Below are positions 1,261 through 47,509 of a stretch of 64,000 nucleotides of DNA, piece by piece. The position numbers were made by a program, and so were the translations under genes. Position 1 is the stretch's first letter. The number at the start of each line of letters is the position of its first letter. Where the stretch lies: positions 13,110 through 77,109 of the forward strand of contig JAKRSD010000007.1 in NCBI GenBank assembly GCA_022402535.1, read 5' to 3'. A model generated the notes under the pieces. That model saw only the letters and a program-made list of their open reading frames with translations. It had not been told where the DNA came from and did no database searches. This DNA comes from Flavobacteriales bacterium. Its GTDB lineage: Bacteria > Bacteroidota > Bacteroidia > CAIKAF01.

Positions 1261-1318
1261 ATTAAATTGAATCAGCGCAATTTAGAAATAATACACACTC
1301 CACGTACATTAATAAATC

Positions 1319-2227
1319 CTAATTTTTGTCCGGACGTTGTTCTATGAATGTTTTGAAGCGGGCCAGTTTATCCACATTGATAATGGTTACTCCGTTGTTC
1401 AGCATTTCATGCCAACGGGTGGGATTATTTCCCGCTGCCCAAAAGCGGATTTCGCGCCCACGTTCGGTTACTTCTTTGGAAAGTTCCCGCATTTTGGCTG
1501 ATTCCATTTCGCTGAGTTTTCCTCCGCCACGTTTGCGGAAATATGAGGAATACGAAGCACTCTGACGGTCAATCCGCACGGGAATACCCACATAATCTCC
1601 GCCAATGGGGGCATCAAAACTGACCCATTGTTCGGTTTCTTCGGACACTATTTTCATGGGGCGGTTGCCCGAAATCATGATGCGCAAAGGCCCTTCTTTG
1701 AATGAACGTCCCATATAAGTGGTCAAATATTCCAGATAGGGTTCCAATGCTTTTTTCAAAAAAGGATAAGTCTGATTTCCGTCCGTTTTTATATCAATCA
1801 TAAGCGTAAGCACCTGCTCCGGATTTTGGAAGACAAATCCTCCGTTTTGGTCTATCCAGGTTTTTAGAGGCTTCAGATATAACTCTTCTAAGGTAGGTTT
1901 TGTATTAAGCGCCAAAGGAATATGCGAAACCCTTAGTGTATTATCCGAAGCTAAAAAAATGTCGATTTCGAGGGACGTAAATCCGAAGGAAAGGGCTTCC
2001 CAAAGGGGCGTTTTGCGCGTGTAATCGTTGTGGGAATGTCCGTAAGGAAGCGGTTTCCCGGGTTTAAAGCCTTGGGGAATTTGGGCATAACCCTGAATAA
2101 TCAGGCAAAAAAAAACAGGGAGAAAAAGAAACGAACGTGCATAGGCTATACTATTTGTAAATCGACCCCGGCAAAGTAAAGCGCCAGAATTACGCCTCCG
2201 GCTAAAATCCGGTACCAGCCAAACCAT
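1319..2227 (-). CDS. PLC-like phosphodiesterase (Ca-dependent PI-PLC-like) family protein, secreted; the true start is probably downstream of the track start (around 2150)
   Basis: GHSHNDY motif early in the mature protein. A hydrophobic signal-like segment ([17 protein letters not shown]) precedes it. The first ~27 codons of the track ORF overlap uppP, so they are likely a spurious N-terminal extension and a non-ATG start may be used. Confidence 0.45.
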
Positions 2228-2940
2228 TTGAATCCGTAGCGGGTAAGAAACCCGATAAACACTTTAATGGCGAGCATAGCCACCACAAAGGCAACCAGAT
2301 TGCCCACGGCAAGCAGTTGGATTTGTTCGGAAGTAAAGCCGTCTCCGGCTTTAAACATCTTGAGTAATTTGTAAGAAGAAGCAGCCAACATGGTGGGCAC
2401 GGCCAGAAAAAATGAAAATTCGGCAGCGGCTTTGCGGGTGAGTTTGCGGGAGAGTCCGCCCACGATGGTTGCCGCACTGCGCGAAACGCCAGGAATCATG
2501 GCCAATACCTGAAAAAATCCGATAAAAAAGCTGTCGGCCGGATTGGGTTCCGATTTGCCGATTTCTTCATTACGGGCAAACAGTTTATCCACAAAAAGCA
2601 GAAAAATACCGCCTAATAAAAGCGATACCGCCACCACCACTACGTTTTCGAGCAGTTTGTCAATAAAATCGTTGAGTAGAAAGCCAAATACGCCCGCGGG
2701 AATGAACCCCAAAAACAATTTGAAATAAAAGGAGATATCGCGGAAAAAGCGCCGGGCGTATAATACCACCACACTGAGGATGGCTCCGAATTGAATGATG
2801 ACTGTATAATTTTTCACGAAATCATCGGCAGCAATACCCATCAGGGATGAGCCGATAATCATGTGGCCGGTGCTGGAAATGGGCAGAAACTCCGTAATTC
2901 CTTCGATTATGGCCAGAATGATGGCTTCGAGGAAACTCAC
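2146..2940 (-). CDS. uppP: Undecaprenyl-diphosphate phosphatase (BacA/UppP)
   Basis: 264-aa polytopic membrane protein. N-terminal [24 protein letters not shown] and the [10 protein letters not shown] motif are diagnostic of the UppP family. Confidence 0.9.
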
Positions 2941-2942
2941 GT

Positions 2943-3191
2943 TTACCCTTTTTTAGGCTTAATCATAATGGCGGCAATATTGATAGAAAAACCTATCAAT
3001 ACCAGAATGGGAGCCACGGTAATACGGGTAGAACTGAATACTTCGGGATTGAAAACATCCGGGTCGCTGCTAGCTCCGCCAGACATAAGTACAAAGCCGA
3101 TGATAATAAACGCCAGACCGATAATCAGGCCGATAAAATTGATTGTTGAGAGGGCGAACCCTTCTTTACCGCTTTCTTTTTGTGGTTCCAT
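2943..3191 (-). CDS. DUF3098-like small membrane protein
   Basis: 82 aa with two TM helices. It sits between ftsX and uppP, the conserved Bacteroidetes arrangement. Confidence 0.55.
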
Positions 3192-3193
3192 AA

Positions 3194-4075
3194 TTAATAT
3201 AAGTCACCTGTGTTTTTTCTGAGAAATCTGTTAACGGCAAGGCGGGTACTGAATCCGGAAATAAAGACCCCCAATGCGATGACGAAGATAATAATTCCGG
3301 CGGGTTTCCAAATTCCCAACCGTTCCACAAACTCAGGAAACCTTTCATAAATGCGTAATCCAAGTAAAGCCAGCAACACAGAGGCAATCAACCCCGAGAG
3401 TAACCCCCTGAGCACGCTTCCGATAACAAACGGGCGACGGATAAACCCGGGTGTGGCGCCCACCAATTGCATGGTTTTGATGGTAAAACGCTGCGAATAA
3501 ATGGCCAAACGGATGGTATTGTTAATGAGCGCAATTACAATAAAAAGCAACAACACCGAAACCACAGAAATCACCACCCCGATTTTTTCCAAATTATTAT
3601 TGGCCTCTTCCATGAGCTCTTTCTTTTTGAACACTTCCACAATATCGTTTCCATATTCTTCTTTAACCGTATTTTCCAGATTCTGCGCCACAGTTGAAGT
3701 GGCAGATTCGGCTTCAAAAATCACCGTATAGGATGCATACAAAGGGTTTTCGTCCAAAATATCCGAAAAATCATCGTTGAAAAGTTCCATGTATATCTGA
3801 CGGGCCTGTTCTTTATCGGTGTAGGTTACAGACTTCACGCCGGGAAAGGTTTCCAGGGAGGTTTTTATATCGGCTAGGGTCTGTTCATTTATTCCGTCTT
3901 CCAGAAAAATTTCTACCGTGAATTTTTCTTTTACGTAGTTAGACAGTTCTTCGGCAAACACCACAATACCGGCCAGTAAGCCCGCCATAAACAACACCAG
4001 GGTAATACTGATTACCGTGGAAATATGGGCCAATTTCAGCTTCTTTTTTCTGCCGGGTTCAAATTCCTCGCTCAT
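3194..4075 (-). CDS. ftsX: Cell division protein FtsX-like permease
   Basis: 293 aa. N-terminal TM, a large periplasmic domain, then three C-terminal TM helices, the FtsX permease topology. Conserved position next to DUF3098/uppP. Confidence 0.75.
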   Translation of the reverse strand: MSEEFEPGRKKKLKLAHISTVISITLVLFMAGLLAGIVVFAEELSNYVKEKFTVEIFLEDGINEQTLADIKTSLETFPGVKSVTYTDKEQARQIYMELFNDDFSDILDENPLYASYTVIFEAESATSTVAQNLENTVKEEYGNDIVEVFKKKELMEEANNNLEKIGVVISVVSVLLLFIVIALINNTIRLAIYSQRFTIKTMQLVGATPGFIRRPFVIGSVLRGLLSGLIASVLLALLGLRIYERFPEFVERLGIWKPAGIIIFVIALGVFISGFSTRLAVNRFLRKNTGDLY

Positions 4076-4308
4076 GTATTCGGTTTATGGTCAAAAGTAA
4101 CGATAAGTATCAGGCCTGTCCGTACAGAAATGACCCGGTTTTAAACAACCTGTTTTTCATAATGTAACAAAATACAAAACAGGCAGACTGCTGATTATCA
4201 AACGTGAAAGTGATACTCATAATTTGTACCGATGTGCAGATGATGTTTGTACCAAAAAAAACTAATAATTTCACCCACATAAATAAAAGATTTTAGTTGC
4301 CCTGAAGT

Positions 4309-5289
4309 ATGAAAAGACTATTGTTTTACCAAAAGCTCGATAAGATTCCGTTTCTGAAAACAATGGCCATGAAAGTGATTTTTATCGCGTTCATCGGAAT
4401 TCATCTTCCCTTGTTGTTGCTGGTGATTTTGTTGGTTGGTTTTCAAATTACCTCCGATGCACTGACTGCTGTGGTCTATCTTCTGTTTTTCACGTTGATT
4501 GCCTCATTGATAACACTCTATTTTCTGAATAAACTGATTCAGCCGGTACGCTATCTGAGCCTGAATTTGCGCTGTTATGTTTCGGGATTAAACTGGAATT
4601 TACCCAAAGTAGATTTCAGAGACGAAACGGGAAGTCTTTTCCGGGATGTGACGAGCTGTGTGGAAACCCTGGAAAATGCCATTCAGGAAAAAAATGATCT
4701 GTACCAGATGCTTTCGCACGATTTAAAAGGAACTCTCGCCGCCCTGCAGGCAGGATATCATCTGCATAAACTAGAAAACAAAGAACTTTCGGAAGAAGAG
4801 CAACTCAAAATGGAAATGGTGGAAAGACAGATTATGGCCATCAACTCGCTGCTATATCTCTATCGTTCAGATGAAAACGGCATCCTGCCCGATCATTCTC
4901 AGGAACTGAATCTGAAACAACTTACCGATGATATCTGTGCTCTGTTTTATTCGGCTCTTCTGCTCGAAAACAAACAGATAGAAGCCGATATACCGCACGA
5001 TGTTGCCATTCAGAAAGACCGTTTTGTGCTTCGTCATTTGTTATTCAATCTGATTGATAATGCCGTAAAATATTCGCGAAGAAACACGGCAATAAAAATC
5101 GGTTACCGCGATGGGGCTTTTTCAATTCAAAATGTGATTAATGCAGCCGATGAAGCGGATGAAAAAAGTTGGAAGCAATCCACAGGACTCGGACAAAAAA
5201 TCATTTCGAAAACTGCGCTCGATTTAGGTTGCCGTTTACAAACCGAAATTAACGGCAATGATTTCAGGGTTCGGGTGGCCTTTGCTTAA
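4309..5289 (+). CDS. Sensor histidine kinase (orphan; no adjacent response regulator)
   Basis: Two N-terminal TM helices. HisKA H-box MLSHDLKGTL, and HATPase N-box LFNLIDNAVKYS. The G-boxes are weak or degenerate. Confidence 0.65.
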   Translation: MKRLLFYQKLDKIPFLKTMAMKVIFIAFIGIHLPLLLLVILLVGFQITSDALTAVVYLLFFTLIASLITLYFLNKLIQPVRYLSLNLRCYVSGLNWNLPKVDFRDETGSLFRDVTSCVETLENAIQEKNDLYQMLSHDLKGTLAALQAGYHLHKLENKELSEEEQLKMEMVERQIMAINSLLYLYRSDENGILPDHSQELNLKQLTDDICALFYSALLLENKQIEADIPHDVAIQKDRFVLRHLLFNLIDNAVKYSRRNTAIKIGYRDGAFSIQNVINAADEADEKSWKQSTGLGQKIISKTALDLGCRLQTEINGNDFRVRVAFA

Positions 5290-5299
5290 CCCGAAGAAA

Positions 5300-6386
5300 T
5301 TATGAATACTGTAAGAGAAACGCTTTCAGAAATTCATCAATATCGCCGTTGAGCACGCCCTGCGAATCGCTGGTTTCATAGTCTGTCCGAACATCTTTCA
5401 CCATCTGATACGGATGCAGCACATAACTCCTGATTTGTGAACCCCATTCAATTTTTTTCTTGCCGGCTTCCACCTTGTCTCTTTCTTCCGAAAGCTTGCG
5501 CATTTCCATTTCGTATAACATGGAACGCAACAGATTGATGGCATTTTCTTTGTTATTGAGCTGCGAGCGCGATTCCTGGTTTTTAATCACAATGCCCGTG
5601 GGTTTGTGGTGGAGCCTTACGGCGGTTTCCACTTTATTTACGTTTTGTCCGCCGGCCCCACCCGAACGGAAAGTATCCCACTCGATATCGGAATCTTTTA
5701 TTTCAATTTCCACGGTATCATCCACCAGCGGATATACATATACCGAAGCAAACGACGTATGACGTTTGGCATTGGAATCAAAGGGAGAAATACGCACCAG
5801 ACGATGTACACCGTTTTCAGCTTTCAGATAACCATACGCATTTGGGCCACTTATCTGAAGCGTTACCGATTTCACACCGGCCACATCACCTTCCTGAAAA
5901 TCCTTCTCAATTACTTTATAGCCCTGTTTTTCGGCCCACATGGTGTACATCCGCATCAGCATGGAAGCCCAATCGCAGCTTTCGGTTCCGCCGGCTCCGG
6001 CTGTGATTTGTATCACCGCATCCAAATGATCTTCGGGTTTGGAAAGCATCTTCTGAAGTTCCTGATTTTCCACCGCTTTTAAGGCAACCTGATATTGTGC
6101 CTCTAAATCAGCCTCGGTGGCTTCGCCTTCTTTGTAAAATTCATATAACACGGAAAGGTCTTCCACCGCCCGTTTGGAATCTTCAAAACTCTTGAGTTTA
6201 TTTTTTTTCTGATTGAGGCTTTTGGTGATTTCTCCCGCCTTTTTGGGATCATTCCAAAAATCGGGGTCCAAGGTTACTTTCTCCTCTTCGGAAATGGTTA
6301 ATTGTAGCGAAGCGACGTCAAAGTGACCTCCCCAACGCGTCCAGGCGTCCCGCTAAATCCTTGATATGGTCTATGGTGATATTCAT
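5300..6386 (-). CDS. prfB: Peptide chain release factor 2 with programmed +1 ribosomal frameshift: frame 0 is 6386..6321 (22 codons, then in-frame TGA at 6320..6318); the +1 frame is 6319..5300
   Basis: Upstream minus-strand reading gives [25 protein letters not shown] then CTT TGA C, the canonical RF2 shift site CUU UGA C. An SD-like GGGAGG lies just upstream. The +1 frame continues [26 protein letters not shown] into the 323-aa track ORF, which carries the SPF motif (RISPFDS) and GGQ ([10 protein letters not shown]). Confidence 0.9.
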
Positions 6387-6415
6387 GGGGCAAAAGTATT
6401 ATTTTCAGACGAATT

Positions 6416-8902
6416 TCAGGGACATTCCATCAAATTCACAAACAAACGGATGGCACCGGGATTTCCGGCAGGTAACTGCCTGAAAAAGGACAAACCGGTG
6501 TAAAAAAACTGCCCTTTTCCATAACGGGTATGTAATAAAATGCCGTCAGAAACGGCCTCTCCCGGGTCGGCACCCGACAGCAGCTTGGTATAGTGAGCAT
6601 CAGTTTCTCCCGTAAAATAAAGTCCTCTTTCCTGCACCCAGCCTTCAAAATCAGAGGCACTGATTTTATTCGGTTTGTTGAACACGGGATGGGAAGGATT
6701 GAGTATTTCCAGCGGAGCTTCTTCCACCGTGATACGGTTTCGCGAAATTTTAAACGGATAAGGTCCTATTTTATCGGTAAGCAGGCTGTTGGATGTGTTA
6801 TACTGCACGATGAATTTTCCACCCGACTGCACATATTTCATAAGTTCTTCATATTTGGGGCCCAATGCACTTTTGGTGTTATAGGCTCTTACTCCGGCAA
6901 TTATCACGTTATATTTTTTGAGCGAGTTAAAGTCCAAATCATCCTCTTTTAATACATCAACCTGATATCCCAAAGCACGCAAAACCTGAGGAATTTCATC
7001 ACCGGCGCCTTCTATGTACCCCACCGTAAGTGCAGAGGTTTTCACTATGGGTGCACTCACCCTGATTTCAGCCTTGGGTTGCAGAATTAAATCCGGAATG
7101 TGGGTGTATGTTATTCTTTTAATGGATTGCGTATACTCATTTCCGTCCAATTTCACTTTCGGAAATATTCGTCCTGAGTTTCCGGTTACTTCAAAACGGA
7201 AGATTTTTTCAATGCCTTCGCCCTGAATTTCAAAATCAATCGAAGGGGTAAGCACCTTTACTCCATTGTCTGTCGTAAACTCCAGCTTACCTTTTTTTAA
7301 GCGTTCATCATTAGAAATCAGTTTCAATTCACATATCGATTTGGTTCCGTTTTTAACAATCAATAGCGAGGTTTTGGGCACAATGGAAATGGGAGGAACC
7401 AGTTCCGGATACCTGAAAAGTTCGCCCCGGTCGGGCTCGGTAAACTTATACACAATGGGTACCGTTATCTGAAGAGGATCTTTGGCGTTATTGAAATACA
7501 CTTCCAACACCGCGCTGAATTTATCCGATTCGGAAGGTTTTACAGCCTGTTCGGGCAAGCCGGCATTGAACATTCCCGGCGAGGTTTTTTCTTCGTTCAG
7601 CCAAAACGGGTTTGCATATTCCTTCACCGTTCCCGGAGGCAGCACCCAGGCTTTTTTGTATAACACATTCGATTGTAGGGGCGTATTAAGCGCGAGCACT
7701 CCCGCATCTTTTACAAAAACCCTTCCCATCAATGCCGGGGCTTTCGAACGGTTAATACATTCTATACTGAGTTTAACACTGTCATTGGGTGTGAATACCG
7801 GTTTTGAAAGTAAAGCTTCTGCAAAAAAACCGGTACAGTCCAGAATGAGTTTTTCGACCTGCCTGATTTTAATTTCTCGCCAAAAAGAGGGATTCAGTTT
7901 TTTCAGTTCGGCACGTACATCCATCAATGCCGGAACGGATTCTACAGGGGCATCGGGATTAAAATTACGAAGGATTATATTGAACGCCGTTTCAATTTTT
8001 TCAGAACCTTGTAACCTGCTCCAGCCGGTTTCCACGCCATCCATCAAATCGGTAACGGGTTTATCGCCCGCAAGCGGTTTCAAATATTCCGGTTCTTCGC
8101 CGCGTTGTCTTGCCGAGCCAAATCCCTGGGAGCGATGACGGCTGCGGCTTTCGGCGGCTATTTCGCCCACCGATTGACCCAAGAGCGGCATAAAGGTGCC
8201 GATATCTACTTTCAACAAACCGGTTTTGTCATAATCACGGGTACCGTAAAAAAACCAACTGGTGTTCCACAAAATGCGTTTGGGCTGCCAAACATCCAGT
8301 TTGCGGAGTTGTTCGGGGAACATTTCAGGATTGCCCGAAGCAAAAAACGCTTCCAACGCCAATTGGGCACTCGCCGTGTGATGTCCGTGAGTTCCCGAAG
8401 GTTCGGGCGAAAAACGGGTAATAATCACATCGGGCCGCAGCGTACGAATGAGCCAAACCGTTTCTTCCAGCAGTTTATTGCGATTCCAGATGGAAAAAGT
8501 TTCTTCCGGATTTTTAGAAAACCCAAAATCACAGGCAGAAGAAAAATATTGTTGACCGCCGTCAATGTGTCGTGCAGCCAATAATTCCTGGGTTCTGATC
8601 ATACCCAATTCCACGGCCTGTTCGCTGCCGATTAAGTTTTGGCCACCATCGCCCCGGGTATAGGACAAATACGCAGTCTGATAACCCTTTTCCAGCGCCA
8701 GCCACGAAATCATCCGGGTGTTTTCATCGTCAGGATGAGCCGCCACATACAACACGCTGCCAAAACGGTTCACATGATTCATATTCAACCGTATTTCGGA
8801 AGCGGTGGCCGAACGGGTTTTTACAGGTTGTGCATGGGTTGCAAAAAACGGATAAATGACGGCGGATAAAAGCAGAAATAAAAAACGATATGTAATATTC
8901 AC
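6416..8902 (-). CDS. PIG-L/LmbE family N-deacetylase fused to a large C-terminal domain (ThuA/GATase1-like fold suspected), secreted
   Basis: 828 aa. Signal peptide, then LYVAAHPDDENTRM (LmbE AHPDDE motif). The long C-terminal extension has a Rossmann-like segment VIIAGVRAYNTKSALGPKYEELMKYVQSGGKFIV. Confidence 0.65.
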   Translation of the reverse strand: MNITYRFLFLLLSAVIYPFFATHAQPVKTRSATASEIRLNMNHVNRFGSVLYVAAHPDDENTRMISWLALEKGYQTAYLSYTRGDGGQNLIGSEQAVELGMIRTQELLAARHIDGGQQYFSSACDFGFSKNPEETFSIWNRNKLLEETVWLIRTLRPDVIITRFSPEPSGTHGHHTASAQLALEAFFASGNPEMFPEQLRKLDVWQPKRILWNTSWFFYGTRDYDKTGLLKVDIGTFMPLLGQSVGEIAAESRSRHRSQGFGSARQRGEEPEYLKPLAGDKPVTDLMDGVETGWSRLQGSEKIETAFNIILRNFNPDAPVESVPALMDVRAELKKLNPSFWREIKIRQVEKLILDCTGFFAEALLSKPVFTPNDSVKLSIECINRSKAPALMGRVFVKDAGVLALNTPLQSNVLYKKAWVLPPGTVKEYANPFWLNEEKTSPGMFNAGLPEQAVKPSESDKFSAVLEVYFNNAKDPLQITVPIVYKFTEPDRGELFRYPELVPPISIVPKTSLLIVKNGTKSICELKLISNDERLKKGKLEFTTDNGVKVLTPSIDFEIQGEGIEKIFRFEVTGNSGRIFPKVKLDGNEYTQSIKRITYTHIPDLILQPKAEIRVSAPIVKTSALTVGYIEGAGDEIPQVLRALGYQVDVLKEDDLDFNSLKKYNVIIAGVRAYNTKSALGPKYEELMKYVQSGGKFIVQYNTSNSLLTDKIGPYPFKISRNRITVEEAPLEILNPSHPVFNKPNKISASDFEGWVQERGLYFTGETDAHYTKLLSGADPGEAVSDGILLHTRYGKGQFFYTGLSFFRQLPAGNPGAIRLFVNLMECP

Positions 8903-8988
8903 GACAAACTCCTTTTAATTTTAGAATCGCTCAGCGGTTGTTAAAACCTTTGTAAACCCGAATTGTTTTACGATGAGCATATACATTT

Positions 8989-9723
8989 ATGCTGATTTTT
9001 ACTGAACTTTGCAAACATAACAATATCCCAGGGAAAATGAATCTTGAACAAATCATAGCGCTGGTAAATGCCGGACGTTTTGAAGAAGCCGAAACGCAAT
9101 TTTCACGCATTACAGAAAGCGAAGGGGCTTCAGCCCAAATTTTTGCAGAATGGGCCCGAATGGAAGTGCGCAGGGGAAATCACGAAAAATCGCTTTCTCT
9201 GATTGAAAAATCGGTAGAAATAGCACCGGGAAATGCGGAATATGTTTTTGAAAAAGGAGTTATTCTTTTTCATTGCGGCAAAAAAAGCCTGGCGCTTTTG
9301 CAGATGGACACTGCCGTGCAGATGGAGCCGGCAAATCCGTTCCGCTATGCAGGCCGGGCTTACATAAAAGACGGCTTGGGTGATACTGACGGTGCCATTG
9401 CCGATTATGAAATTGTACTGAAACTAGACCCGGAAGATGCCGTGGCACACAATAATCTGGGTTTATTGCTCGAAAAAAAAGGCTGGCAAGAAAAAGCGGG
9501 ACAACATTTTAAAAAGGCAGATAACCTGGCAGAACAGGAAAAATTATTTTCGTTTTTAGATAATAAAACAGAGGCCGAAGCTGAGCCGGAAATACCCACT
9601 ACTGAAAATCAAAAACCGGAAAATTCAATTTCCATCATGAAAAAGGTATTTACCGACCGTAAAACCCGAAATGAATTTTTCAATTTTTTGAAAACGGGTT
9701 TATTCACCAAAAATAATTCCTGA
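8989..9723 (+). CDS. Tetratricopeptide-repeat protein (start more likely at the internal Met near 9037)
   Basis: TPR-like helical repeats (AEWARMEVRRGNHEKSLSLIEKSVEIAPGNAEYVF...). Acidic, low-complexity C-terminus. Confidence 0.55.
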   Translation: MLIFTELCKHNNIPGKMNLEQIIALVNAGRFEEAETQFSRITESEGASAQIFAEWARMEVRRGNHEKSLSLIEKSVEIAPGNAEYVFEKGVILFHCGKKSLALLQMDTAVQMEPANPFRYAGRAYIKDGLGDTDGAIADYEIVLKLDPEDAVAHNNLGLLLEKKGWQEKAGQHFKKADNLAEQEKLFSFLDNKTEAEAEPEIPTTENQKPENSISIMKKVFTDRKTRNEFFNFLKTGLFTKNNS

Positions 9724-9728
9724 GCGTT

Positions 9729-11006
9729 TTGAAAAACCGAGATATACGCTGGATATTAATCATTGCTGCATTTGCCATAGCCGGGCTTATTTTAATGCAG
9801 GTCAATTTTATCAATAAAGCGTTTGAACTCAATGCCAATCAGTTTAACGACAAAGTGAGCCTGGCACTGATAACGGTGGCCGAGCAGGTAAACAAAAATA
9901 AGCGGGACAGTACATCTTCTATTGAAGCGGTGGAACAGGTTACCGAAGATTATTTTACCGTGAATGTAAACGACACGGTAAACCATCGTTTTTTGGAAAA
10001 TCTGTTGCATCTGGAGTTTTCTAAATATGGCGTTGAAGCCGATTACCAGTATGTTATATACGATTGTTTTGCCGATTCCATTATTTGGAAAGGGTATTCC
10101 AATAAACCCGGAGAAGAAGATTTATTCACCGTAAACCGTAGTCTGCCTTCTTACGTATTGCCCAAAGACAGCCACAAAATCGGGGTCTATTTCCCGGGTA
10201 AAAAGCAATACATCCTTTCGCAGATGAATGTGTTTGTATTTTCAGGAATCGGACTTTTTGTAATCATTTGTTTTTTTGTTTATATCCTGTACATTATTTT
10301 AAAACAGAAAAAGTTGTCTGAAATCAAAAGCGATTTCATCAACAATATGACCCATGAGTTTAAAACGCCCATCAGTACCATAAATCTCTCAGCCGATGCA
10401 CTGGGGAAACCCGGCATTGAAAAAAATCCGGAACGGATAAGCCGCTACGCCCAAATCATAAAAGATGAAGGATTACGACTCAGAAACCATGTAGATAAAA
10501 TTCTAGAAATTGCCGTGTTGGATGCCGATACGCCCAAATTTAAGTCGGAACCTGTGGATATGCACGAGCAGATCAACAAAGCCGTGGAAATCATCCGCAT
10601 AAAAATTGAAGAAAGAAATGGCAAACTGGAGACAAATATTCATGCTGAATATACAGTGGTAAAAGGAGATGCCGACCATTTAAGCAATATCTTGTTAAAC
10701 CTGCTGGGCAATGCGTTGAAGTATACAGAAAAAGAACCGCACATCCGGATAAACACCAAAAATGAAGGAAAATACATGGTCATTTCCATTTCAGACAATG
10801 GTATTGGCATTCCCAAGAAATATAAAAAGTATATCTTTAATAAATTTTACAGAGTAAGTACAGGTAATGTACACAATGTAAAAGGCTTCGGTTTGGGGCT
10901 GTATTATGTAAATAAAATTGTAAAATCACATGGCGGGAGTATAACCGTAGAAAGTGAGCCGAATAAAGGCAGCACCTTCTCCATAAAACTTCCGGTAATA
11001 AAATAG
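9729..11006 (+). CDS. Two-component sensor histidine kinase
   Basis: Two TM helices. H-box NMTHEFKTPISTI, N-box LLNLLGNALKYT, and G-boxes SDNGIGIP and GFGLGLYYV. Confidence 0.85.
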   Translation: MKNRDIRWILIIAAFAIAGLILMQVNFINKAFELNANQFNDKVSLALITVAEQVNKNKRDSTSSIEAVEQVTEDYFTVNVNDTVNHRFLENLLHLEFSKYGVEADYQYVIYDCFADSIIWKGYSNKPGEEDLFTVNRSLPSYVLPKDSHKIGVYFPGKKQYILSQMNVFVFSGIGLFVIICFFVYILYIILKQKKLSEIKSDFINNMTHEFKTPISTINLSADALGKPGIEKNPERISRYAQIIKDEGLRLRNHVDKILEIAVLDADTPKFKSEPVDMHEQINKAVEIIRIKIEERNGKLETNIHAEYTVVKGDADHLSNILLNLLGNALKYTEKEPHIRINTKNEGKYMVISISDNGIGIPKKYKKYIFNKFYRVSTGNVHNVKGFGLGLYYVNKIVKSHGGSITVESEPNKGSTFSIKLPVIK

Positions 11007-11012
11007 TGAGTA

Positions 11013-11711
11013 ATGGGAAAAAAGGATATTCAGATTTTATTGGCAGAAGATGATTTTAACTTAGGTTTTGTAATCAAAGATCTGCTGGAAGATGAAGGGT
11101 ATGACGTAAAGCTATGCAGTGACGGTGTTTCTGCGCTTCAGGCATACAATGAAAATGCATATGATTTATGCCTTTTTGATGTGATGATGCCCCAGAAAGA
11201 CGGATTTACCCTCGCTGAAAACATCCGGAAAGTAGACCCGGAAATGCCGATTATTTTTCTCACCGCAAAATCGCTTACTGAGGATAAAGTAAAAGGACTG
11301 GGAATCGGTGCAGATGATTATATAACAAAACCGTTTGAAAATGCAGAATTTTTGCTTCGGATTGAAAATGTATTGCGACGTACGGGAAAGAAAAAACAAA
11401 GAAATGACCCGGATGAATTTATGATCGGAAAATTCAAACTGGATACAAAAAATTTAACCCTTACGGCCTCTGACGAAGAAATACACAAACTTACCGCCAA
11501 GGAAGCTAAAATATTACGCCTGCTTTGCTTAAATATTAATGCCGTAGTAGAAAGAGATGTGCTCCTAAATTCGGTTTGGGGGAAAGATGATTATTTCACC
11601 GGGCGCAGCATGGACGTATTTATAACCAAATTGCGTAAATATTTAAAAAGCGATGAACGGGTGAAAATCCAAAACATTCACGGAGTAGGGTTTAAATTAG
11701 AAATTTTATAA
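11013..11711 (+). CDS. OmpR/PhoB-family response regulator transcription factor
   Basis: REC domain with LLAEDD..D (phospho-acceptor in CLFDVMMP) and the K of LTAKS. C-terminal winged-helix (LTAKEAKILRLL...GFKL). The start is 6 nt after the kinase stop. Confidence 0.85.
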   Translation: MGKKDIQILLAEDDFNLGFVIKDLLEDEGYDVKLCSDGVSALQAYNENAYDLCLFDVMMPQKDGFTLAENIRKVDPEMPIIFLTAKSLTEDKVKGLGIGADDYITKPFENAEFLLRIENVLRRTGKKKQRNDPDEFMIGKFKLDTKNLTLTASDEEIHKLTAKEAKILRLLCLNINAVVERDVLLNSVWGKDDYFTGRSMDVFITKLRKYLKSDERVKIQNIHGVGFKLEIL

Positions 11712-11730
11712 CGCTCCATAAATAGAAAAC

Positions 11731-12843
11731 ATGAAAAAAGCACTGATAACAGGTATAACAGGCCAGGATGGAGCATATCTTGCCGAACTGTTGCTTCAAA
11801 AAGGATACGAAGTACACGGAATCAAACGCAGAAGTTCTCTTTTTAATACCGACCGTATCGATCATCTCTACCAAGACCTGCACGAAAGCGGCGTTCGATT
11901 TAAACTGCACTATGGCGACCTCACGGACAGCATGAATCTTACCCGGATTATTCAGGAAATCCAACCGGATGAAATCTATAATCTGGGAGCCATGAGCCAT
12001 GTAAAAGTGAGTTTCGATACTCCGGAATATACCGCTAATGTGGATGGAATCGGCACGTTGAGAATTTTGGAAGCCGTAAGACTTTTGGGACTCACCCAAA
12101 AAACGCGTATTTATCAAGCGTCAACATCGGAGTTATACGGTCTGGTGCAGGAAGTACCCCAAAAAGAGACCACCCCTTTTTATCCGCGGTCGCCCTATGC
12201 ATGTGCCAAACTTTATGGCTACTGGATTACGGTTAATTACCGAGAAGCCTACGGAATGTACGCCGTGAACGGAATTTTATTTAATCATGAATCACCTCTT
12301 CGGGGCGAAACGTTTGTAACCCGAAAAATCACACGGGGAGCCGCTAAAATTGCACTGGGACTTCAGGATGCCATCTATCTCGGAAATTTAAGTGCTCAAC
12401 GCGATTGGGGTCATGCCAAAGATTATGTAGAAGCGATGTACCTTATGCTGCAGCAGGACACTCCGGAAGATTACGTGATTTCGACAGGTGTTACCACCAC
12501 CGTTCGCGATTTTTGCCGTATGACATTTGCCGAACTGGGTATAGACTTAGAATTTAAAGGAGAAGGTGATGATGAACAGGGAATTGTTACCCGATGTCAT
12601 AATCCCGAATTTCAAATTCCGGAAGGAAAACCGATCATTAAAGTAGATAAAAATTATTACCGGCCAACAGAAGTGGATTTGCTGATCGGAGATTCTTCCA
12701 AAGCCAAAGAAAAGCTGGGCTGGGTTCCCAAACATGATTTGAAATCGTTGGTTAAAGACATGATTTGGGCAGATGTGAAATTATTCCGGCGTGATGAATA
12801 CCTCTTAAAAGGCGGACATAAAGTGATGAATTATCATGAATAA
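11731..12843 (+). CDS. gmd: GDP-mannose 4,6-dehydratase
   Basis: [36 protein letters not shown] is the canonical Gmd N-terminus. Extended SDR fold, 370 aa. Confidence 0.95.
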
Positions 12844-42221: not shown

Positions 42222-42951
42222 GGTATTTTTTCGTTTCGGCCAGGCCGAGTAAAGCTAAATTTTGGCGCACAAATATGGCATTTTTAAACCGGCCTTCAAA
42301 AACTTCTGCATCACCACCCGTAACCAACACCCGGATTCCCGGGTAACGGTTTCTATAGAGATCCGCCATCCCCAGCGCTTCTGCCAGTAATCCCAGCATA
42401 GCTCCGATATGCATGCTTTCCGCGGTGGATTTCCCTTCGGGTGATTCCGGAAATTTTTCTGACCGGGTCAATAACGGCAGTTTTGCCGTAAAAGTATGCA
42501 TGGATTTATAACGCATATTTAACCCCGGCGATATGGAGCCGCCCCGGTAGCAGCCATCTTGGGTGAGCATATCGCACTTGAGGCAGGTGCCAAAATCGAG
42601 AATGAGTACATCCTCTCCCGGATACAACACTCCGGCACCGATTGCCGAAGCCAGACGGTCGGTTCCCAGGGTATGGGGAGTCTCGTAATCGATACGGACA
42701 GACAAAGGCAAATCCGTGGTGAAACGGGTGAGCCGTAGCATCTGCTGCCAAGATTGTTCGGTTTCGGCATCCACGTCGCCCACGGAGGAATAAAGGCCAC
42801 CTTCTAAGGTATCTATAGAAATAAGGGAAGAAACCCTGGATAAAACCTCTTGGGGAGCAGACGTAAACGTGTGAACCGGATTAAAATCCGGGTCGGTAAT
42901 GAGGCCTTTGGTGGCCGTATTTCCATGATCTAAAAACAGAAAATGTCGCAA
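42196..42951 (-). CDS. coaX: Type III pantothenate kinase
   Basis: MRHFLFLDHGNTATKG (DxGNT ASKHA motif). 251 aa. Confidence 0.85.
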   Translation of the reverse strand: MRHFLFLDHGNTATKGLITDPDFNPVHTFTSAPQEVLSRVSSLISIDTLEGGLYSSVGDVDAETEQSWQQMLRLTRFTTDLPLSVRIDYETPHTLGTDRLASAIGAGVLYPGEDVLILDFGTCLKCDMLTQDGCYRGGSISPGLNMRYKSMHTFTAKLPLLTRSEKFPESPEGKSTAESMHIGAMLGLLAEALGMADLYRNRYPGIRVLVTGGDAEVFEGRFKNAIFVRQNLALLGLAETKKYHANNPDTL

Positions 42952-42996
42952 ATACAGGCAATTGAGTGTGCAAAGGTAATTTTTTTGCCCGAAAAT

Positions 42997-43026
42997 TTTG
43001 TGATACGTGAATCGGTTTTATCTTTG
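42997..43026 (+). promoter_or_regulatory. Putative Bacteroidetes sigma-A promoter for tRNA-Phe: -33 TTTG (42997..43000) and -7 TATCTTTG (43019..43026)
   Basis: TTTG-N18-TAnnTTTG arrangement ending about 18 nt before the tRNA 5' end. Matches the Bacteroidetes consensus only from memory; not verified. Confidence 0.4.
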
Positions 43027-43043
43027 CACCCTCTTAATGAGAA

Positions 43044-43116
<73 letters not shown>

Positions 43117-43121
43117 CCGAA

Positions 43122-43150
43122 AAACCCTGCACTCTGCGGGGTTTTTTATT
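43122..43150 (+). terminator. Rho-independent terminator-like hairpin after tRNA-Phe
   Basis: CCCTGCA-ctc-TGCGGGG stem (one G-U wobble) followed by TTTTTTATTTT. Confidence 0.5.
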
Positions 43151-43373
43151 TTGCATTGTGTTCATTTTACAATACCAACCAATTTGAACCTTTTTTACAC
43201 GCAAGGGTATAAATACCCGAACGCTTAGTAATTTTATGCCATGAACTTCTGTAAATCGGACTTTTCAGCCGAGTCTCTCCTATATGGGTTCGGATTGTCA
43301 ACAACAGCAACACACAACCCTATTGTGCGGGAAAACGTAAACGAAATGTTTAATAAATCAAGAACTTGGCGGC

Positions 43374-44423
43374 ATGAATAAACTGAACACGATTCTTCCG
43401 TTACTCTTTCTTTTCTTCAGTTCTCAGGCACAAGCAAAACTTCGTCCCTGTTATCTGAGTATGTCGTTGAGTGCTTCGAAAACTAAATTCACCACCTCCG
43501 AACCGGTGCAAATTAATGTCACCCTAACCAACGGAAACAACCGATCGCATTCCATCCTGGTTCCGGGAAATCAATCCAAGGGGTTGAAATTGATTTACTT
43601 TTCGTGGTATACGGTGGATGAAAAGAACTTTTACACCGAAGTACACCGCGATTCGAGAATCATTTTGATGGATACCGCCGTAAAAGGCTACGTAAATTTT
43701 AACCGGCTGCAGCCCAAAGAATCCACCACGGTTCCGTTTTTCTTCAACGATGCTAAAAACGCCTCAAAACGAATCACTTCAAACTATAAAACGCCCCAAT
43801 TACCTCCCGGAAAATATAAAATATTGGCCTGGTATTATCCCTGGGACGAAGAGTTTTCGAAATATGCGTTTAACAAATTTGATTGGCATGGGAATATAGA
43901 CTCCACCGCCTACAATGAAGAATTTTTAGACTTGTCCGAAGCCGGAATCAATAGCCCCTACTTTGATATAGAAATTGTCGCCGAACCGGTTCCTGTACCT
44001 GAAAATTACACTTCCGAATGTGGTAAACATTGTTTTATATGCCGGGCTATAGAGCAGGAACACTGGGGTGTCATAAAACGAAAGATCCGACGTGATTCGC
44101 GTTTTGTGAATGAAATCAATTTGGGAAACCATTTGAAAAATGATACCAATGGTATATGGCAAAAAAAGCACAGAAACATCGTGTATGTGGGCGATACGCC
44201 GGATGCGATATTGGCTTCGCTGCCCAGTTTTTTATCGCGTGAAATTATTTTTCAAAACAAAAACGGAATCCATTATTTTGATCTCACCTGGCAATTGGGA
44301 AAAATCAGCAGAGTCGGTTCCCGGTTGAATACCTTTCTGTATATGATCGGACTAAAAAAACTTCGGGTTAGGGATTCTAAAGTGGATTATTCCCGTTTGA
44401 AATACATGCAAAAAACAGAGTGA
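43374..44423 (+). CDS. Hypothetical secreted protein (no recognised family)
   Basis: MNKLNTILPLLFLFFSSQAQA signal peptide. 349 aa. Lower GC than the flanking core genes. Confidence 0.5.
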   Translation: MNKLNTILPLLFLFFSSQAQAKLRPCYLSMSLSASKTKFTTSEPVQINVTLTNGNNRSHSILVPGNQSKGLKLIYFSWYTVDEKNFYTEVHRDSRIILMDTAVKGYVNFNRLQPKESTTVPFFFNDAKNASKRITSNYKTPQLPPGKYKILAWYYPWDEEFSKYAFNKFDWHGNIDSTAYNEEFLDLSEAGINSPYFDIEIVAEPVPVPENYTSECGKHCFICRAIEQEHWGVIKRKIRRDSRFVNEINLGNHLKNDTNGIWQKKHRNIVYVGDTPDAILASLPSFLSREIIFQNKNGIHYFDLTWQLGKISRVGSRLNTFLYMIGLKKLRVRDSKVDYSRLKYMQKTE

Positions 44424-44424
44424 G

Positions 44425-45167
44425 CCTGACATTTATCGTCGGTGGTCGAACAACATGTTACATGGAATTTTTTAAAATATATTAATCCTTTCATTTCTAT
44501 TTTCTGCAATTCAACATTTCTTTTTAGCGCTCGCCGCGGGGCATTCTTTTTTCCTTGATGAAAAAAGAATCAAAAAACCGAGGCGAAGCCGAGCTCACGA
44601 CTTCCAAATAACAAATAGACAAAAAGGAGTAAATCAAGGCTGCGGATTTTTGGCGACCCACATCCGTCTCAATTCCTAAAGGGTGGGAAGCCGGCCCCTG
44701 CGGTGCCTTTTGACCCACCCTTCTGACGGAATTTTCGCCGTGTGGGTACCCCGCCAATAAATCCGATGCCGTCCGGAGACGGAAGCCCTGCTTTCGGCAG
44801 CGTAGGAAGAAAAAGGCGTTAAGAAACGGCGAAGCCTTGGAGGCGTTTTAGCCTTTTTCTTCCGGTGCTTTGCAACGCCTCCGGAAGCAGTGCCCTTTCT
44901 TTGTTTACTTTCTTTGGGCAATTCAAAGAAAGTAAAAGCCCGCCCGGCTTGAGGGCCATTAAAAAAGGTGTCAAACAACATAACGTTTAGTATTCGCATA
45001 CCCGTTACCCTTCGAGTTACAAAGCCGGTCTGACGGACCGTTTTGCCCTCAGGGCAACGGAACCAGCGTGAGAGCGGGGATTTGGTATAATATAACCCTA
45101 TTCGCTGACCCCGTAGGGGTCGAATATCGGTAGAATAAACCCTGACATTTATCGTCGGGGGTCGAAT
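44425..45167. repeat. 26-bp direct repeats (44425..44450 and 45142..45167, 25/26 identical: CCTGACATTTATCGTCGG[T/G]GGTCGAA) bounding a 717-bp non-coding, GC-normal segment rich in nested inverted repeats
   Basis: Read directly from the sequence. Inside the segment several helices nest. ACCCACA/TGTGGGT encloses TCCGTC/GACGGA, which encloses AAGGGTGGG/CCCACCCTT. GGAGGCGTT/AACGCCTCC and GACCCC-gta-GGGGTC also form stems. The motif GGGGTCGAATA occurs three times. No credible ORF on either strand. Confidence 0.6.
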
Positions 45168-45456
45168 ATAATGTAAAGATTACGTTTTTTATATTTCGCC
45201 CCTATGGGGCTATTGTTGCATGGTCATACATTTCGGCTACCAATATGCCGCCCCTATGGGGCTATATACGCCATATGCGCAGAGCATTACCCCTGCCAAT
45301 TTACAAAAACTTTTTAACAACAAAAGGGGAAAAAGCTCCAAACTGATATATTTGAAAAAAATGCCACATTGTATACAATAAAAAAAGCATTAAGATGCAA
45401 CAATTAATAAACCACTAAACAAATCAATATAAAAGCGGATTTAAAAAAATTAAAGT

Positions 45457-46050
45457 ATGACTACATATATAATCATTTCAATTGTAATAATTACAGTGTT
45501 ATTTTTTTTACTTCGAAAAAATAATAATAACACACAAATCAACACGAAATCTGCTAGTTCATTAGTTAAGAATCCTAATTCAACACCGTTTTCGCTTTGT
45601 TCTAAAAATTCAATTTCCGTTGCATTCAAGAATATAGATATGTTAACAAAGAATAACGAAAGGGATGAAAGATTGTATAAGTCATTCCAATCATTAAAAT
45701 GCAGCAAGAATGATTTAAAAAAAAGTTTTTATTTTCTTAAAGATTGTATTTACTTCTGCAAAAATGAGCCTATCTATAACAATATGGAATTACTTGCTAA
45801 TTTAAATTTTTTAGAGACTCAAGTTAATCTTTATTATTTAGACACAGCCTCAGAAGAAATACCTCATGATGAAATTGAAAATTATGAATTCGGCAAGAAG
45901 TTTAACCTCGACAAGGGTATAGAAAATAAAGAACTTGAGGATCTTAAACTCATTTATTGGAGAGGTAAAGAACATTGGGAATTTTGGGTGGACAAATATG
46001 GGATTAATAATGATTTAGGAAAATATTGTATTTCTCAAGCGAGAAAATGA
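45457..46050 (+). CDS. Hypothetical membrane-anchored protein in the AT-rich islet (N-terminal TM helix, ~170-aa cytoplasmic/exposed domain)
   Basis: MTTYIIISIVIITVLFFLL TM anchor. About 27% GC and lysine/asparagine-rich, unlike the core genome. No motif recognised. Confidence 0.45.
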   Translation: MTTYIIISIVIITVLFFLLRKNNNNTQINTKSASSLVKNPNSTPFSLCSKNSISVAFKNIDMLTKNNERDERLYKSFQSLKCSKNDLKKSFYFLKDCIYFCKNEPIYNNMELLANLNFLETQVNLYYLDTASEEIPHDEIENYEFGKKFNLDKGIENKELEDLKLIYWRGKEHWEFWVDKYGINNDLGKYCISQARK

Positions 46051-46321
46051 AATAAATGAATGTTAGCAACAAAAAAATGTAATACTAAAGAAAGGTAAAT
46101 AAAGATGACACTGAAAGTAATTATTTAAATGAAATTTGAGAAAAGTGAATTTTTAAATGATTAATGTATTGCTATATAGAATAGTCTAGCACATAACATT
46201 CAGCAGTTTTTGTTGCATAGTAAAACTAATTGATTTAAATATAGAAAAATAGATATTAATTATTTATATTTTCAATCTTCGATGTTGCCTTTATGTCTTC
46301 TTTTAACTATAATTTAATACC

Positions 46322-46876
46322 ATGTTTCATAACTCATCTCAGACAAGATATTTTGTAATAGATAGTACAATTCAAATTGAACATTTAATTTCAAAAACTC
46401 TAGGGATAATCTTAGGAATTGATTGGAAGAACTCAAAATCATTTGGTTTTAAATCAAGCTCTTTAAGTTTTAATCAAAAAGTATTTATCATTCAAGACTT
46501 GGGAAAAAGTGATAAATTATTGGTCGATAAATTAGATTGCTTAATTCAAATACGAAACAAATTTGCTCATGTATATGAAGTTAAAACATTTGAAGATTTT
46601 TTTTCATTATCAACTAGCACAAATGACGTTAAGAAGAAGTTAGAACGATATTACATTTCAGACAATTTGAAAAATGATGAAAATAAATACCAATCTTATT
46701 TTACAAAGTTGACTTATGACATTGTTAATTCATTGATAGCAATAATAATAAATCATGAAGTTGAAAGAGGAAAAAAAAATTACAAGAAAGACTTAAATCA
46801 AAAGGTTGTTAATGAACTTTTTAAATCAGAAGAGGGTAAATTATTTATAAAAAAAATCATTGAGAGTCAAACATAA
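46322..46876 (+). CDS. HEPN-domain protein with Rx4HxY motif (Abi_2/AbiD-F-like or HepT-like); candidate toxin/abortive-infection effector
   Basis: The motif ...LDCLIQIRNKFAHVYEV... has R78-N-K-F-A-H83-V-Y, i.e. Rx4HxY, the catalytic signature of HEPN RNases. 184 aa. About 28% GC. Confidence 0.5.
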   Translation: MFHNSSQTRYFVIDSTIQIEHLISKTLGIILGIDWKNSKSFGFKSSSLSFNQKVFIIQDLGKSDKLLVDKLDCLIQIRNKFAHVYEVKTFEDFFSLSTSTNDVKKKLERYYISDNLKNDENKYQSYFTKLTYDIVNSLIAIIINHEVERGKKNYKKDLNQKVVNELFKSEEGKLFIKKIIESQT

Positions 46877-46910
46877 ATTAGAAACTTTACCTAGGTTAAG
46901 AGTGGCATAG

Positions 46911-47300
46911 ATGCACAACCCTACCCAAATAAAAACATTGCTATTTTCGTTCATGCCCAACAATAACAACAACTCCGATTTTTTCAGTCAGGTGTATCAG
47001 GTGGTGGCGCTCATTCCCAAGAGCAGAGCCACTTCTTACGGGGCCATTGCCAAATATTTGGGCAGTGCCCGCTCCTCGCGTATGGTGGGCTGGGCCATGA
47101 ATGCTTCGCATACAGCCGCACCCGGTTTGCCGGCCCACCGGGTGGTAAACCGCAACGGCGTGCTCACGGGTAAACATTTTTTTGTGGGAGAATCCATGGA
47201 AGAACGGCTTCGCCGCGAAGGCATCCGCATAGAAAATGATCAGATTCTGGATTGGGACAAGGTGTTTTGGGATCCGGGGAAAGAGCTGGGATTAGATTAA
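46911..47300 (+). CDS. Alkyltransferase-like (ATL) protein: MGMT/Ogt DNA-binding domain with the active-site Cys replaced by Ala (start may be at the internal Met 46953)
   Basis: VYQVVALIPKSRATSYGAIA (the MGMT HTH region), then TAAPGLPAHRVVNRNGVLTG aligning to the Ogt PCHRVV motif with C to A. Only the C-terminal domain is present, 115-129 aa. Confidence 0.7.
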   Translation: MHNPTQIKTLLFSFMPNNNNNSDFFSQVYQVVALIPKSRATSYGAIAKYLGSARSSRMVGWAMNASHTAAPGLPAHRVVNRNGVLTGKHFFVGESMEERLRREGIRIENDQILDWDKVFWDPGKELGLD

Positions 47301-47509
47301 TCCACCGGTTTGCAGCGCCACGACTGAAAATAGGTTTCATCGGCGGGCACATTGTTTTCTTTTACCCAGCGGTAATCGCAGGTTTCCAGGGTGTCAATTT
47401 CTTTAATGCCCTGTGCCGTAAGCTCCTCCAGGCGGCAATCATAACAGGAGTTGCAGGCATAGGCCGCCGATAATCCCAACACCATCAATAAAAATCCGAT
47501 TTTTTTCAT
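47297..47509 (-). CDS. Small Cys-rich secreted/lipoprotein (hypothetical)
   Basis: MKKIGFLLMVLGLSAAYAC signal. 6 Cys in the ~50-aa mature part. Confidence 0.4.
   Translation of the reverse strand: MKKIGFLLMVLGLSAAYACNSCYDCRLEELTAQGIKEIDTLETCDYRWVKENNVPADETYFQSWRCKPVD

Follow-up and report, generated by a model that had tools for sequence, protein, structure and literature searches.

Background

HEPN domains with an Rx4-6H motif act as endoRNases that need no metal, and the two subunits of a dimer together make up the site (PMC3710099; PMC13043305). Its published features are Rx4-6H, a polar residue (N, D or H) after the arginine and a conserved acidic residue in helix one (PMC3710099). The motif is lost from inactive HEPN lineages, and only about 60% of MtlR proteins keep it (PMC3710099). 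HepS, a HEPN protein of ~218 aa from the Gifsy-1 prophage (PDB 9oij/9oik), senses a phage protein, cuts tRNA anticodon loops and causes abortive infection; it has no partner gene and is non-toxic at rest (PMC13043305). Integrons are on record as storing small anti-phage systems of one gene each in their cassettes; one of these is Esos of the Vibrio cholerae superintegron, a small cassette whose protein has a HEPN-like domain only and validated anti-phage activity (bioRxiv 10.1101/2024.07.02.601686).

Here we analyse a 64-kb stretch of DNA from a Flavobacteriales MAG (the window, meaning this stretch at its full length) and report that ORF-B, one of two genes in an AT-rich islet (Table 1), belongs to a large, uncatalogued family, mostly from Bacteroidota, with no curated model and no characterised member. 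ORF-B shares with HepS a predicted stand-alone HEPN domain, the lack of a conserved partner and residence in mobile DNA; because the two have no detectable sequence homology, the resemblance is one of kind and not of descent. HepS occurs in Enterobacteria and Bacilli, mainly in prophages, whereas the ORF-B family is found in Bacteroidota and in integron cassettes. Esos and the homologues of ORF-B, likened here by description, are both single-gene integron cassettes in different phyla; unlike Esos, the window copy of ORF-B lies outside an integron and has no detectable attC site.

The likeness of ORF-B to MtlR and YggD (PF05068; 3brj, 3c8g, 6kcr) is structural only, with 11-15% identity and no Pfam match. 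MtlR, a gamma-proteobacterial protein of mannitol operons, is often without the catalytic motif, whereas the ORF-B family is from Bacteroidota, is mobile and has an invariant R-N-x3-H. DUF4145 proteins (PF13643) are associated with restriction-modification systems (PMC3710099), as is one distant relative of ORF-B, but they are usually fused to other domains (PMC3710099) and the ORF-B family is stand-alone. HepT/MntA systems have an MNT partner and a tyrosine after H-x, the AMPylation site; ORF-B has no MNT partner, its tyrosine is not conserved in relatives, and it is ~50 residues longer than HepT, with extra C-terminal helices. ORF-B has neither a match to the Abi_2 (AbiD/AbiF) profile nor the associated upstream repeat/ncRNA.

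Table 1. Positions in the window of the islet, its genes and its surroundings
Feature	Position	Strand	Description
tRNA-Phe(GAA)	43044..43118	+	left edge of variable region
Strain-specific insertion	43153..46978	.	3826 bp; the syntenic contig L047 has 53 bp here
AT-rich islet	45300..46900	.	25.0% GC, lowest-GC 1.6 kb of the 64-kb window
ORF-A	45457..46050	+	197 aa; N-terminal hydrophobic anchor and conserved ~155-aa all-alpha domain
Spacer between ORF-A and ORF-B	46051..46321	.	271 nt, 21% GC
ORF-B	46322..46876	+	184 aa; stand-alone protein with modelled HEPN fold, DUF4145/MtlR-like branch, predicted endoRNase
IRNKFAHVY	46550..46576	+	R78-N79-x3-H83 HEPN active-site motif, ORF-B residues 77-85

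The islet and its acquisition

By composition the islet stands out sharply: its GC is 25.0%, the window as a whole has 43.9%, and the islet's z among all 1.6-kb windows is -5.5. Over the 64 kb, GC is at its minimum in the 1.6-kb window that starts at 45301; away from the islet (starts below 42400 or above 47500) the lowest such window has 35.4% GC. In 400-nt windows from 45400 to 46999 GC is 0.225-0.28, with 0.40-0.56 on both sides, and GC3 is 0.25 in ORF-A and 0.20 in ORF-B. An earlier note on this DNA had described an AT-rich two-gene islet with an AT-rich spacer of ~270 bp and a tRNA-Phe 2.2 kb upstream; the composition bears this description out, and both reading frames, the spacer and the tRNA lie where it placed them.

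Both genes are annotated as hypothetical proteins in the source record, and neither product has a significant match in Pfam, PADLOC, NCBIfam or PHROGs; the PADLOC run that the earlier note had proposed (PADLOC-DB v2 defence-system models) gave no match to either protein at E <= 1. Each gene has a promoter-like site of its own, and one such site lies within the spacer at 46285-46313; the sigma-70-type scan, whose model is not of the Bacteroidota type, returned 10 sites where 10.8 were expected, which is chance level.

The window has a syntenic counterpart in a metagenomic contig (L047), with amino acid identities of 69% for an OMP, 60% for PanK, 72% for an MGMT-like ATL, 86% for Mrp, 75% for NifU and 52% for a small lipoprotein. 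The contig's gene order is PanK, tRNA-Phe, a terminator hairpin, ~45 bp and then ATL. The window shares the tRNA-Phe and the terminator with it, and the extra DNA comes next: nucleotide homology ends at 43152 and is back by 46979. The insertion is a compositional mosaic consisting of an orphan gene for 349 aa with 41% GC, a structured, GC-rich stretch of ~700 nt that is non-coding and bracketed by a 34-nt direct repeat, and the 25% GC islet as its distal part, ~3.8 kb in all downstream of the tRNA and terminator. The site in the syntenic contig is nearly empty (~53 bp versus ~3.8 kb), and therefore the islet DNA is horizontally acquired, as the earlier note had proposed.

An integrative island at tRNA-Phe was considered for this insertion and rejected, as the 3' end of the tRNA has no att-type duplicate. 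The insertion is flanked by housekeeping genes, namely those for type III pantothenate kinase (Pan_kinase), NUBPL-type ParA (Mrp), NifU, DPRP, photolyase and DNA_binding_1 (an MGMT-like DNA-binding protein). No defence genes were found near the locus. Since the flanking genes are housekeeping ones, the "defence-island neighbourhood" seen by the earlier note is wrong for this window.

ORF-B as a HEPN protein

A structural model of ORF-B built on an 8-sequence alignment is an all-alpha helical bundle with the HEPN fold. Its best structural matches are Vibrio MtlR (3brj; score 9.9), YggD (3c8g; 9.9) and E. coli MtlR (6kcr; 9.6), followed by the HEPN protein AF0298 (7.4), HepS (7.3), the sacsin HEPN domain (7.3), Cas13b (7.2), HepT (7.1), AbiF (6.8), Swt1 (5.8), RnlA (5.4) and Csm6 (5.4); Foldseek E-values for ORF-B are not significant.

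In an alignment of 120 relatives, which are 23-42% identical to ORF-B, R78, N79 and H83 are the sole invariant columns. Conserved in at least 90% of the same sequences are R9, E20, S38, G42, S49, K53, D59 and F81. E20, which sits in the helix spanning residues 5-31, matches the acidic residue described for helix one; the [KR] of the "Ex3[KR]" form is absent from ORF-B, where position 24 is a serine. This conservation fits what has been published on the active site of HEPN endoRNases (PMC3710099). The earlier note had read the motif as Rx4HxY, and of this reading the arginine and histidine stand. The tyrosine at position 85 is found only in the window protein, with L, K, A or R in close relatives, so Rx4HxY is not a feature of the family. 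The earlier note had also named a HEPN bundle and conserved R and H positions as the outcome to look for, and both were found.

At the sequence level, no link of ORF-B to a characterised HEPN protein or defence family was found. ORF-B has no Pfam match at E <= 1, so no curated HEPN-clan model matched, and PDB sequence searches with 8- and 120-sequence profiles gave spurious coiled-coil or designed-protein matches only. When the 120 members were scanned singly against Pfam, the recurrent matches were sub-threshold and all to HEPN-clan families: DUF4145 in 10, HEPN_Cthe2314 in eight, HEPN_Swt1 in seven, HepT-like in five and RiboL-PSP in three. DUF4145, the commonest, reached E 3.4e-4 at best, and none of its matches is convincing. 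The HEPN review places MtlR and DUF4145 in one assemblage (PMC3710099), and because of this grouping the structural and sequence hints agree. We conclude that ORF-B is very probably a member of the HEPN family, and by its model the family is structurally nearest the DUF4145/MtlR branch. It is a new lineage inside a very well known superfamily; HepS, Esos and the Abi HEPN proteins are direct precedents for the action predicted for it.

Size and distribution of the ORF-B family

A word-indexed homology search returned only eight relatives of ORF-B. An exhaustive profile search of 1.84 billion representatives gave 696 clusters (50% identity) at E <= 1e-3 and 463 at E <= 1e-10, nearly all of them stand-alone proteins of ~200 aa. 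We examined 34 loci with ORF-B relatives, of which species-representative genomes supplied 28, viral contigs four and exact look-ups two. In 29 of the 30 loci with a callable gene the relative is lower in GC than its surroundings, for example 0.34 versus 0.52 in Chitinophaga, 0.29 versus 0.50 in a Saprospiraceae MAG and 0.32 versus 0.49 in a viral contig; the exception is the Flavobacterium wongokense locus (0.29 versus 0.27).

Most neighbours of the relatives are housekeeping genes and not defence genes, which we count against a defence reading. They include PFK, pyruvate kinase, SmpB, cytochrome bd, DUF1015, PCMT and saccharopine dehydrogenase, and the gaps between the relatives and such neighbours are often 2-30 nt. 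A minority of relatives sits in defence-type contexts, a defence island among them. One distant relative (L030) lies between HsdM (gap of 2) and HsdS (overlap of 8) in a Type I restriction-modification operon; another (L002) is found amid a methyltransferase, an S subunit, a SduA_C protein and a 1601-aa DEAD/UvrD helicase; and a third (L031) is on a phage-like contig, near a ParB-like nuclease/methylase and a hydroxymethylcytosine glucosyltransferase.

Integron cassettes

In Flavobacterium magnum (CP028811) the ORF-B homologue P0002, 47% identical to ORF-B over the segment that BLAST aligned, is one of a series of small ORFs on the same strand, and each spacer of the series carries a copy of a ~145-nt repeat. 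The repeat starts ...YAAC, ends GTT... and forms a long imperfect stem with bulges; core to core it measures 125 nt in 16 of 17 copies and 126 nt in the other. For each junction, the 10 nt from the GTT of one site were scored for antiparallel complementarity to the 10 nt that end in the AAC of the next. The score was at least 8/10 in 15 of 16 junctions, nine of them perfect, and only 5-8/10 within the same site. This between-site pattern identifies the F. magnum repeats as integron attC sites and the units between them as circularisable cassettes, with 17 sites in 12.6 kb. The P0002 cassette has a perfect junction and measures 631 nt for a 588-nt ORF.

A covariance model built from the F. magnum sites was searched in the other loci. 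In F. caeni the attC sites at 3614-3756 and 4353-4498 bracket an ORF-B homologue at 3732-4352, and the contig holds eight sites. Strong sites also bracket the homologue in F. wongokense and abut those in Terrimonas NS-102 and Aurantibacter aestuarii, so that ORF-B homologues are accompanied by attC sites in L001 (F. magnum), L004 (F. wongokense), L008 (F. caeni), L010 (Terrimonas) and L023 (Aurantibacter). Cassette-borne homologues have ~15-30 nt from attC to the start codon. The ORF-B homologues in F. magnum, F. caeni, F. wongokense and others are genuine single-gene integron cassettes. The gene family is mobile: sporadic, AT-rich and cassette-borne in several members of both Flavobacteriia and Chitinophagia.

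Large integron cassette arrays are present in both of these classes. For Bacteroidetes, a survey that covered complete genomes, published in 2022, recorded one complete integron only (PMC9024848).

In the window itself, the Flavobacterium attC covariance model detected no site between 43000 and 47200 with filters off (best 8.6 bits), although an attC of a type different from those in the model could have escaped it. A junction-complementarity scan came out at chance level, with 48 candidate pairs where 30 +/- 8 would be expected and no pair in a sensible position. Integrases have been shown to insert cassettes at places other than att sites (bioRxiv 10.1101/2022.09.11.507474). It is possible that the window copy of ORF-B originated as a cassette and then lost its attC.

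Predicted action of ORF-B

Based on these observations, we somewhat favour a reading of the islet as two independent accessory genes, in which ORF-B would be a self-contained, trigger-gated HEPN RNase acting by abortive infection like HepS. This reading is drawn from the HEPN fold, the invariant motif, the lack of a partner and the mobile spread, together with the precedents of other HEPN proteins, HepS and the cassette systems. In such a scheme ORF-B would be a metal-independent endoribonuclease with its active site across a HEPN dimer or higher oligomer; at rest it would be inactive until a phage- or stress-derived trigger switched it on, and it might then cleave tRNA or mRNA and arrest growth in the manner of HepS. 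The helices past residue ~120, outside the HEPN core, are a candidate surface for sensing or oligomerisation. By analogy with these systems ORF-B is probably an active RNase, and an anti-phage function has a chance somewhat short of even; a defence or abortive-infection role for ORF-B alone is plausible.

ORF-B might instead be a non-catalytic regulator of the MtlR/YggD kind that binds a protein partner or RNA and is neither nuclease nor defence protein. MtlR and YggD, to which its model is closest, act as regulators, and some of their family is considered non-catalytic (PMC3710099). Against this, 120 divergent sequences have no invariant residues besides R, N and H, and a sporadic, AT-rich, cassette-borne spread would be unexpected for a regulator of a host pathway. 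There is also no MtlR Pfam match and no mannitol or PTS context: no mannitol genes were found near ORF-B or its relatives, and MtlR is not among the top Pfam families of the 120 members. We therefore regard a regulatory role as unlikely.

A little less likely still is that ORF-B is an addiction toxin stabilising acquired DNA, held in check by an unrecognised antitoxin such as a small RNA or micro-ORF in the spacer, in the style of the AbiF-type HEPN/ncRNA systems. Neither strand of the spacer folds better than shuffled sequence (z -0.24 and -0.30), and the spacer has no reported tandem repeats and no Rfam match, the tRNA being the sole match in a scan of 42800-47400. In the cassettes the whole unit is barely longer than the ORF. 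With leaders of ~15-30 nt there, and gaps of 2-30 nt around the copies wedged between other genes, no conserved antitoxin locus can exist.

If ORF-B is indeed an active trigger-gated RNase, Bacteroidota would gain a compact defence or toxin family of ~200 aa. Defence systems in this phylum are poorly charted, and current Pfam, PADLOC and NCBIfam models would miss the ORF-B family. Its carriage as single-gene cassettes supports the recent view of integrons as banks of small self-sufficient defences and widens it past Vibrio and other Proteobacteria. More tentatively, we suggest that the family may be an unrecognised, widespread, single-protein HEPN anti-phage system of Bacteroidota that spreads as cassettes, that sedentary integrons with defence "biobanks" may be far commoner in Flavobacteriia and Chitinophagia than reported, and that the window copy may have left such an array and lost its attC.

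ORF-A and its relation to ORF-B

The first gene of the islet matches the earlier description of a 197-aa protein with a hydrophobic N-terminus and no recognisable domain: residues 4-19 are hydrophobic and modelled as a helix, and the protein has no library match. Its conserved all-alpha domain (~155 aa) has four invariant cysteines. The family is small, with 12 proteins after profile search, and scans of metagenomes and viral sequences found no further relatives. Five of the 12 members lack the TM helix, and in one more (P0163) the N-terminus is of another kind.

The earlier note had proposed the membrane protein and the HEPN protein as one module of two genes, a toxin or abortive-infection system. 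In such a module ORF-A would serve as sensor, antitoxin or membrane effector. The two genes are adjacent, on the same strand and both of extremely low GC. In one further locus (L037) an ORF-A relative is followed, 29 bp on, by a 177-aa protein with F-x-x-K...R-N-x-x-A-H ("NFRHKQK...SNRNDMAH"), which aligns in register with ORF-B residues 5-100 in a weak hhalign match (P 0.006, probability 6%). Other ORF-A relatives are followed by genes for a lipoprotein-like or a DnaJ/KTSC protein or by further orphans.

Conservation of the neighbourhood, which the earlier note had put forward as a check, speaks against the pair. A tblastn search of ORF-A against the 34 ORF-B-relative loci found none with an ORF-A relative (best E = 2), and the ORF-B profile, run with filters off against the ORFs of the 12 ORF-A-relative loci, found no ORF-B member (best E 0.098); the two never co-occur in the loci examined. 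Clustering of the +/-3 neighbours in 30 ORF-B-relative loci revealed no shared family, and so no conserved neighbour; the sole clusters trace back to a single locus entered twice (as L029 and as L033), in which the gene upstream is an ORF-B paralogue. The earlier note was right that this is not a classical HepT/MntA pair: no MNT-type gene was found in the window by ORF and Pfam scans or beside ORF-B relatives in the 30 homologue loci, and NTP_transf is not among the commonest neighbour families.

With co-occurrence at 0/34 and 0/12, 271 nt between the supposed partners, a promoter-like site for each gene, cassette-borne homologues of ORF-B that are single-gene units without room for a partner, and an ORF-A TM helix that is not conserved, the two-gene hypothesis is largely refuted and a joint module highly improbable. 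Adjacency and shared low GC failed here to mark a functional pair. An undescribed membrane-protein/HEPN system is unsupported, and a candidate single-gene defence family remains. ORF-B is most likely independent of ORF-A, which is a second, unrelated accessory gene.

The ORF-A relative P0163 itself lies in a cassette array (L039/L040) with weaker attC sites. Since attC arrays hold relatives of both ORF-B and ORF-A, both families belong to the integron cassette pool of Bacteroidota.

Composition of the inserted DNA

The insertion in the window, missing from the syntenic metagenomic contig L047, holds two further elements besides the islet of ORF-A and ORF-B. The first is an orphan gene whose 349-aa product could not be assigned to any family of Pfam, PADLOC, NCBIfam or PHROGs. 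The second is a stretch of about 700 nt of GC-rich, non-coding DNA bracketed by a direct repeat, which on either strand folds much more strongly than 20 shuffled versions of itself (z -4.7 and -5.8) and has no match in Rfam. The repeat occurs just twice within the window, and no copy was found in any of the 126 fetched loci. On the right, the MGMT-like (ATL) gene is probably listed with a start codon too far upstream; judging by L047, translation more likely begins at the ATG at 46953, and the insertion would then end inside the annotated 5' end of this gene.

Coordinates of features in the window and in the fetched loci
Feature	Locus	Position	Remark
349-aa orphan protein	window	43374-44423	N-terminus signal-peptide-like
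34-nt direct repeat	window	44425-44458 and 45141-45174	copies 88% identical
Repeat-bracketed stretch	window	44425-45175	
MGMT-like (ATL) gene, as listed	window	46911-47300	
Cassette array	L001 (F. magnum CP028811)	1-12588	
Second-type attC-like array	L039/L040	1-12960	
177-aa protein	L037	808-1341	29 bp downstream of ORF-A relative
Wedged ORF-B relatives	L005, L015, L018, L019	~8000	
Wedged ORF-B relative	L016	~2500	
145-aa membrane-anchored protein gene	L003	964-1398	duplicate downstream

Cassette arrays and relatives of ORF-A and ORF-B

Large integron cassette arrays were observed at the loci of ORF-B homologues in F. magnum, F. caeni (L008), F. wongokense (L004), Aurantibacter aestuarii (L023) and Terrimonas sp. 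(L010), their cargo consisting almost entirely of small ORFs without a Pfam match. The F. magnum array carries 17 attC sites in 12.6 kb, and 15 of its 16 junctions show R'/R'' complementarity; the F. caeni array has eight attC sites. Since a single complete integron was all that a 2022 survey (PMC9024848) listed for Bacteroidetes, these arrays, which may be either complete integrons or CALINs, may be under-reported.

An attC-like array of a second type is present in L039/L040, where a repeat of ~135-170 nt (start ...TAACAACGTGTTTATGCC, end ...CATAAACACAAACGTTGTG) recurs in 9-11 copies, matched weakly (14-21 bits) by the attC model built from the F. magnum sites. This array contains P0163, a 319-aa relative of ORF-A, amid about 20 small same-strand orphan ORFs, as well as a PIN-domain gene.

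The sole hint of an association between ORF-A and HEPN proteins was seen in L037, where the 177-aa neighbor of an ORF-A relative contains "NFRHKQK...SNRNDMAH" and aligns weakly, in register, with ORF-B residues 5-100. It may be a distant HEPN protein with an ORF-B-like architecture.

Other ORF-B relatives, in L005, L015, L016, L018 and L019, are single ORFs inserted very precisely among unrelated housekeeping genes, from which gaps of just -1 to 27 nt separate them; they are poorer in GC than the flanking sequence, and none of the five has an attC. In Psychroserpens mesophilus (L003), the ORF-B homologue is flanked on either side by identical copies of the gene for a 145-aa membrane-anchored protein, suggesting a local duplication or recombination event.
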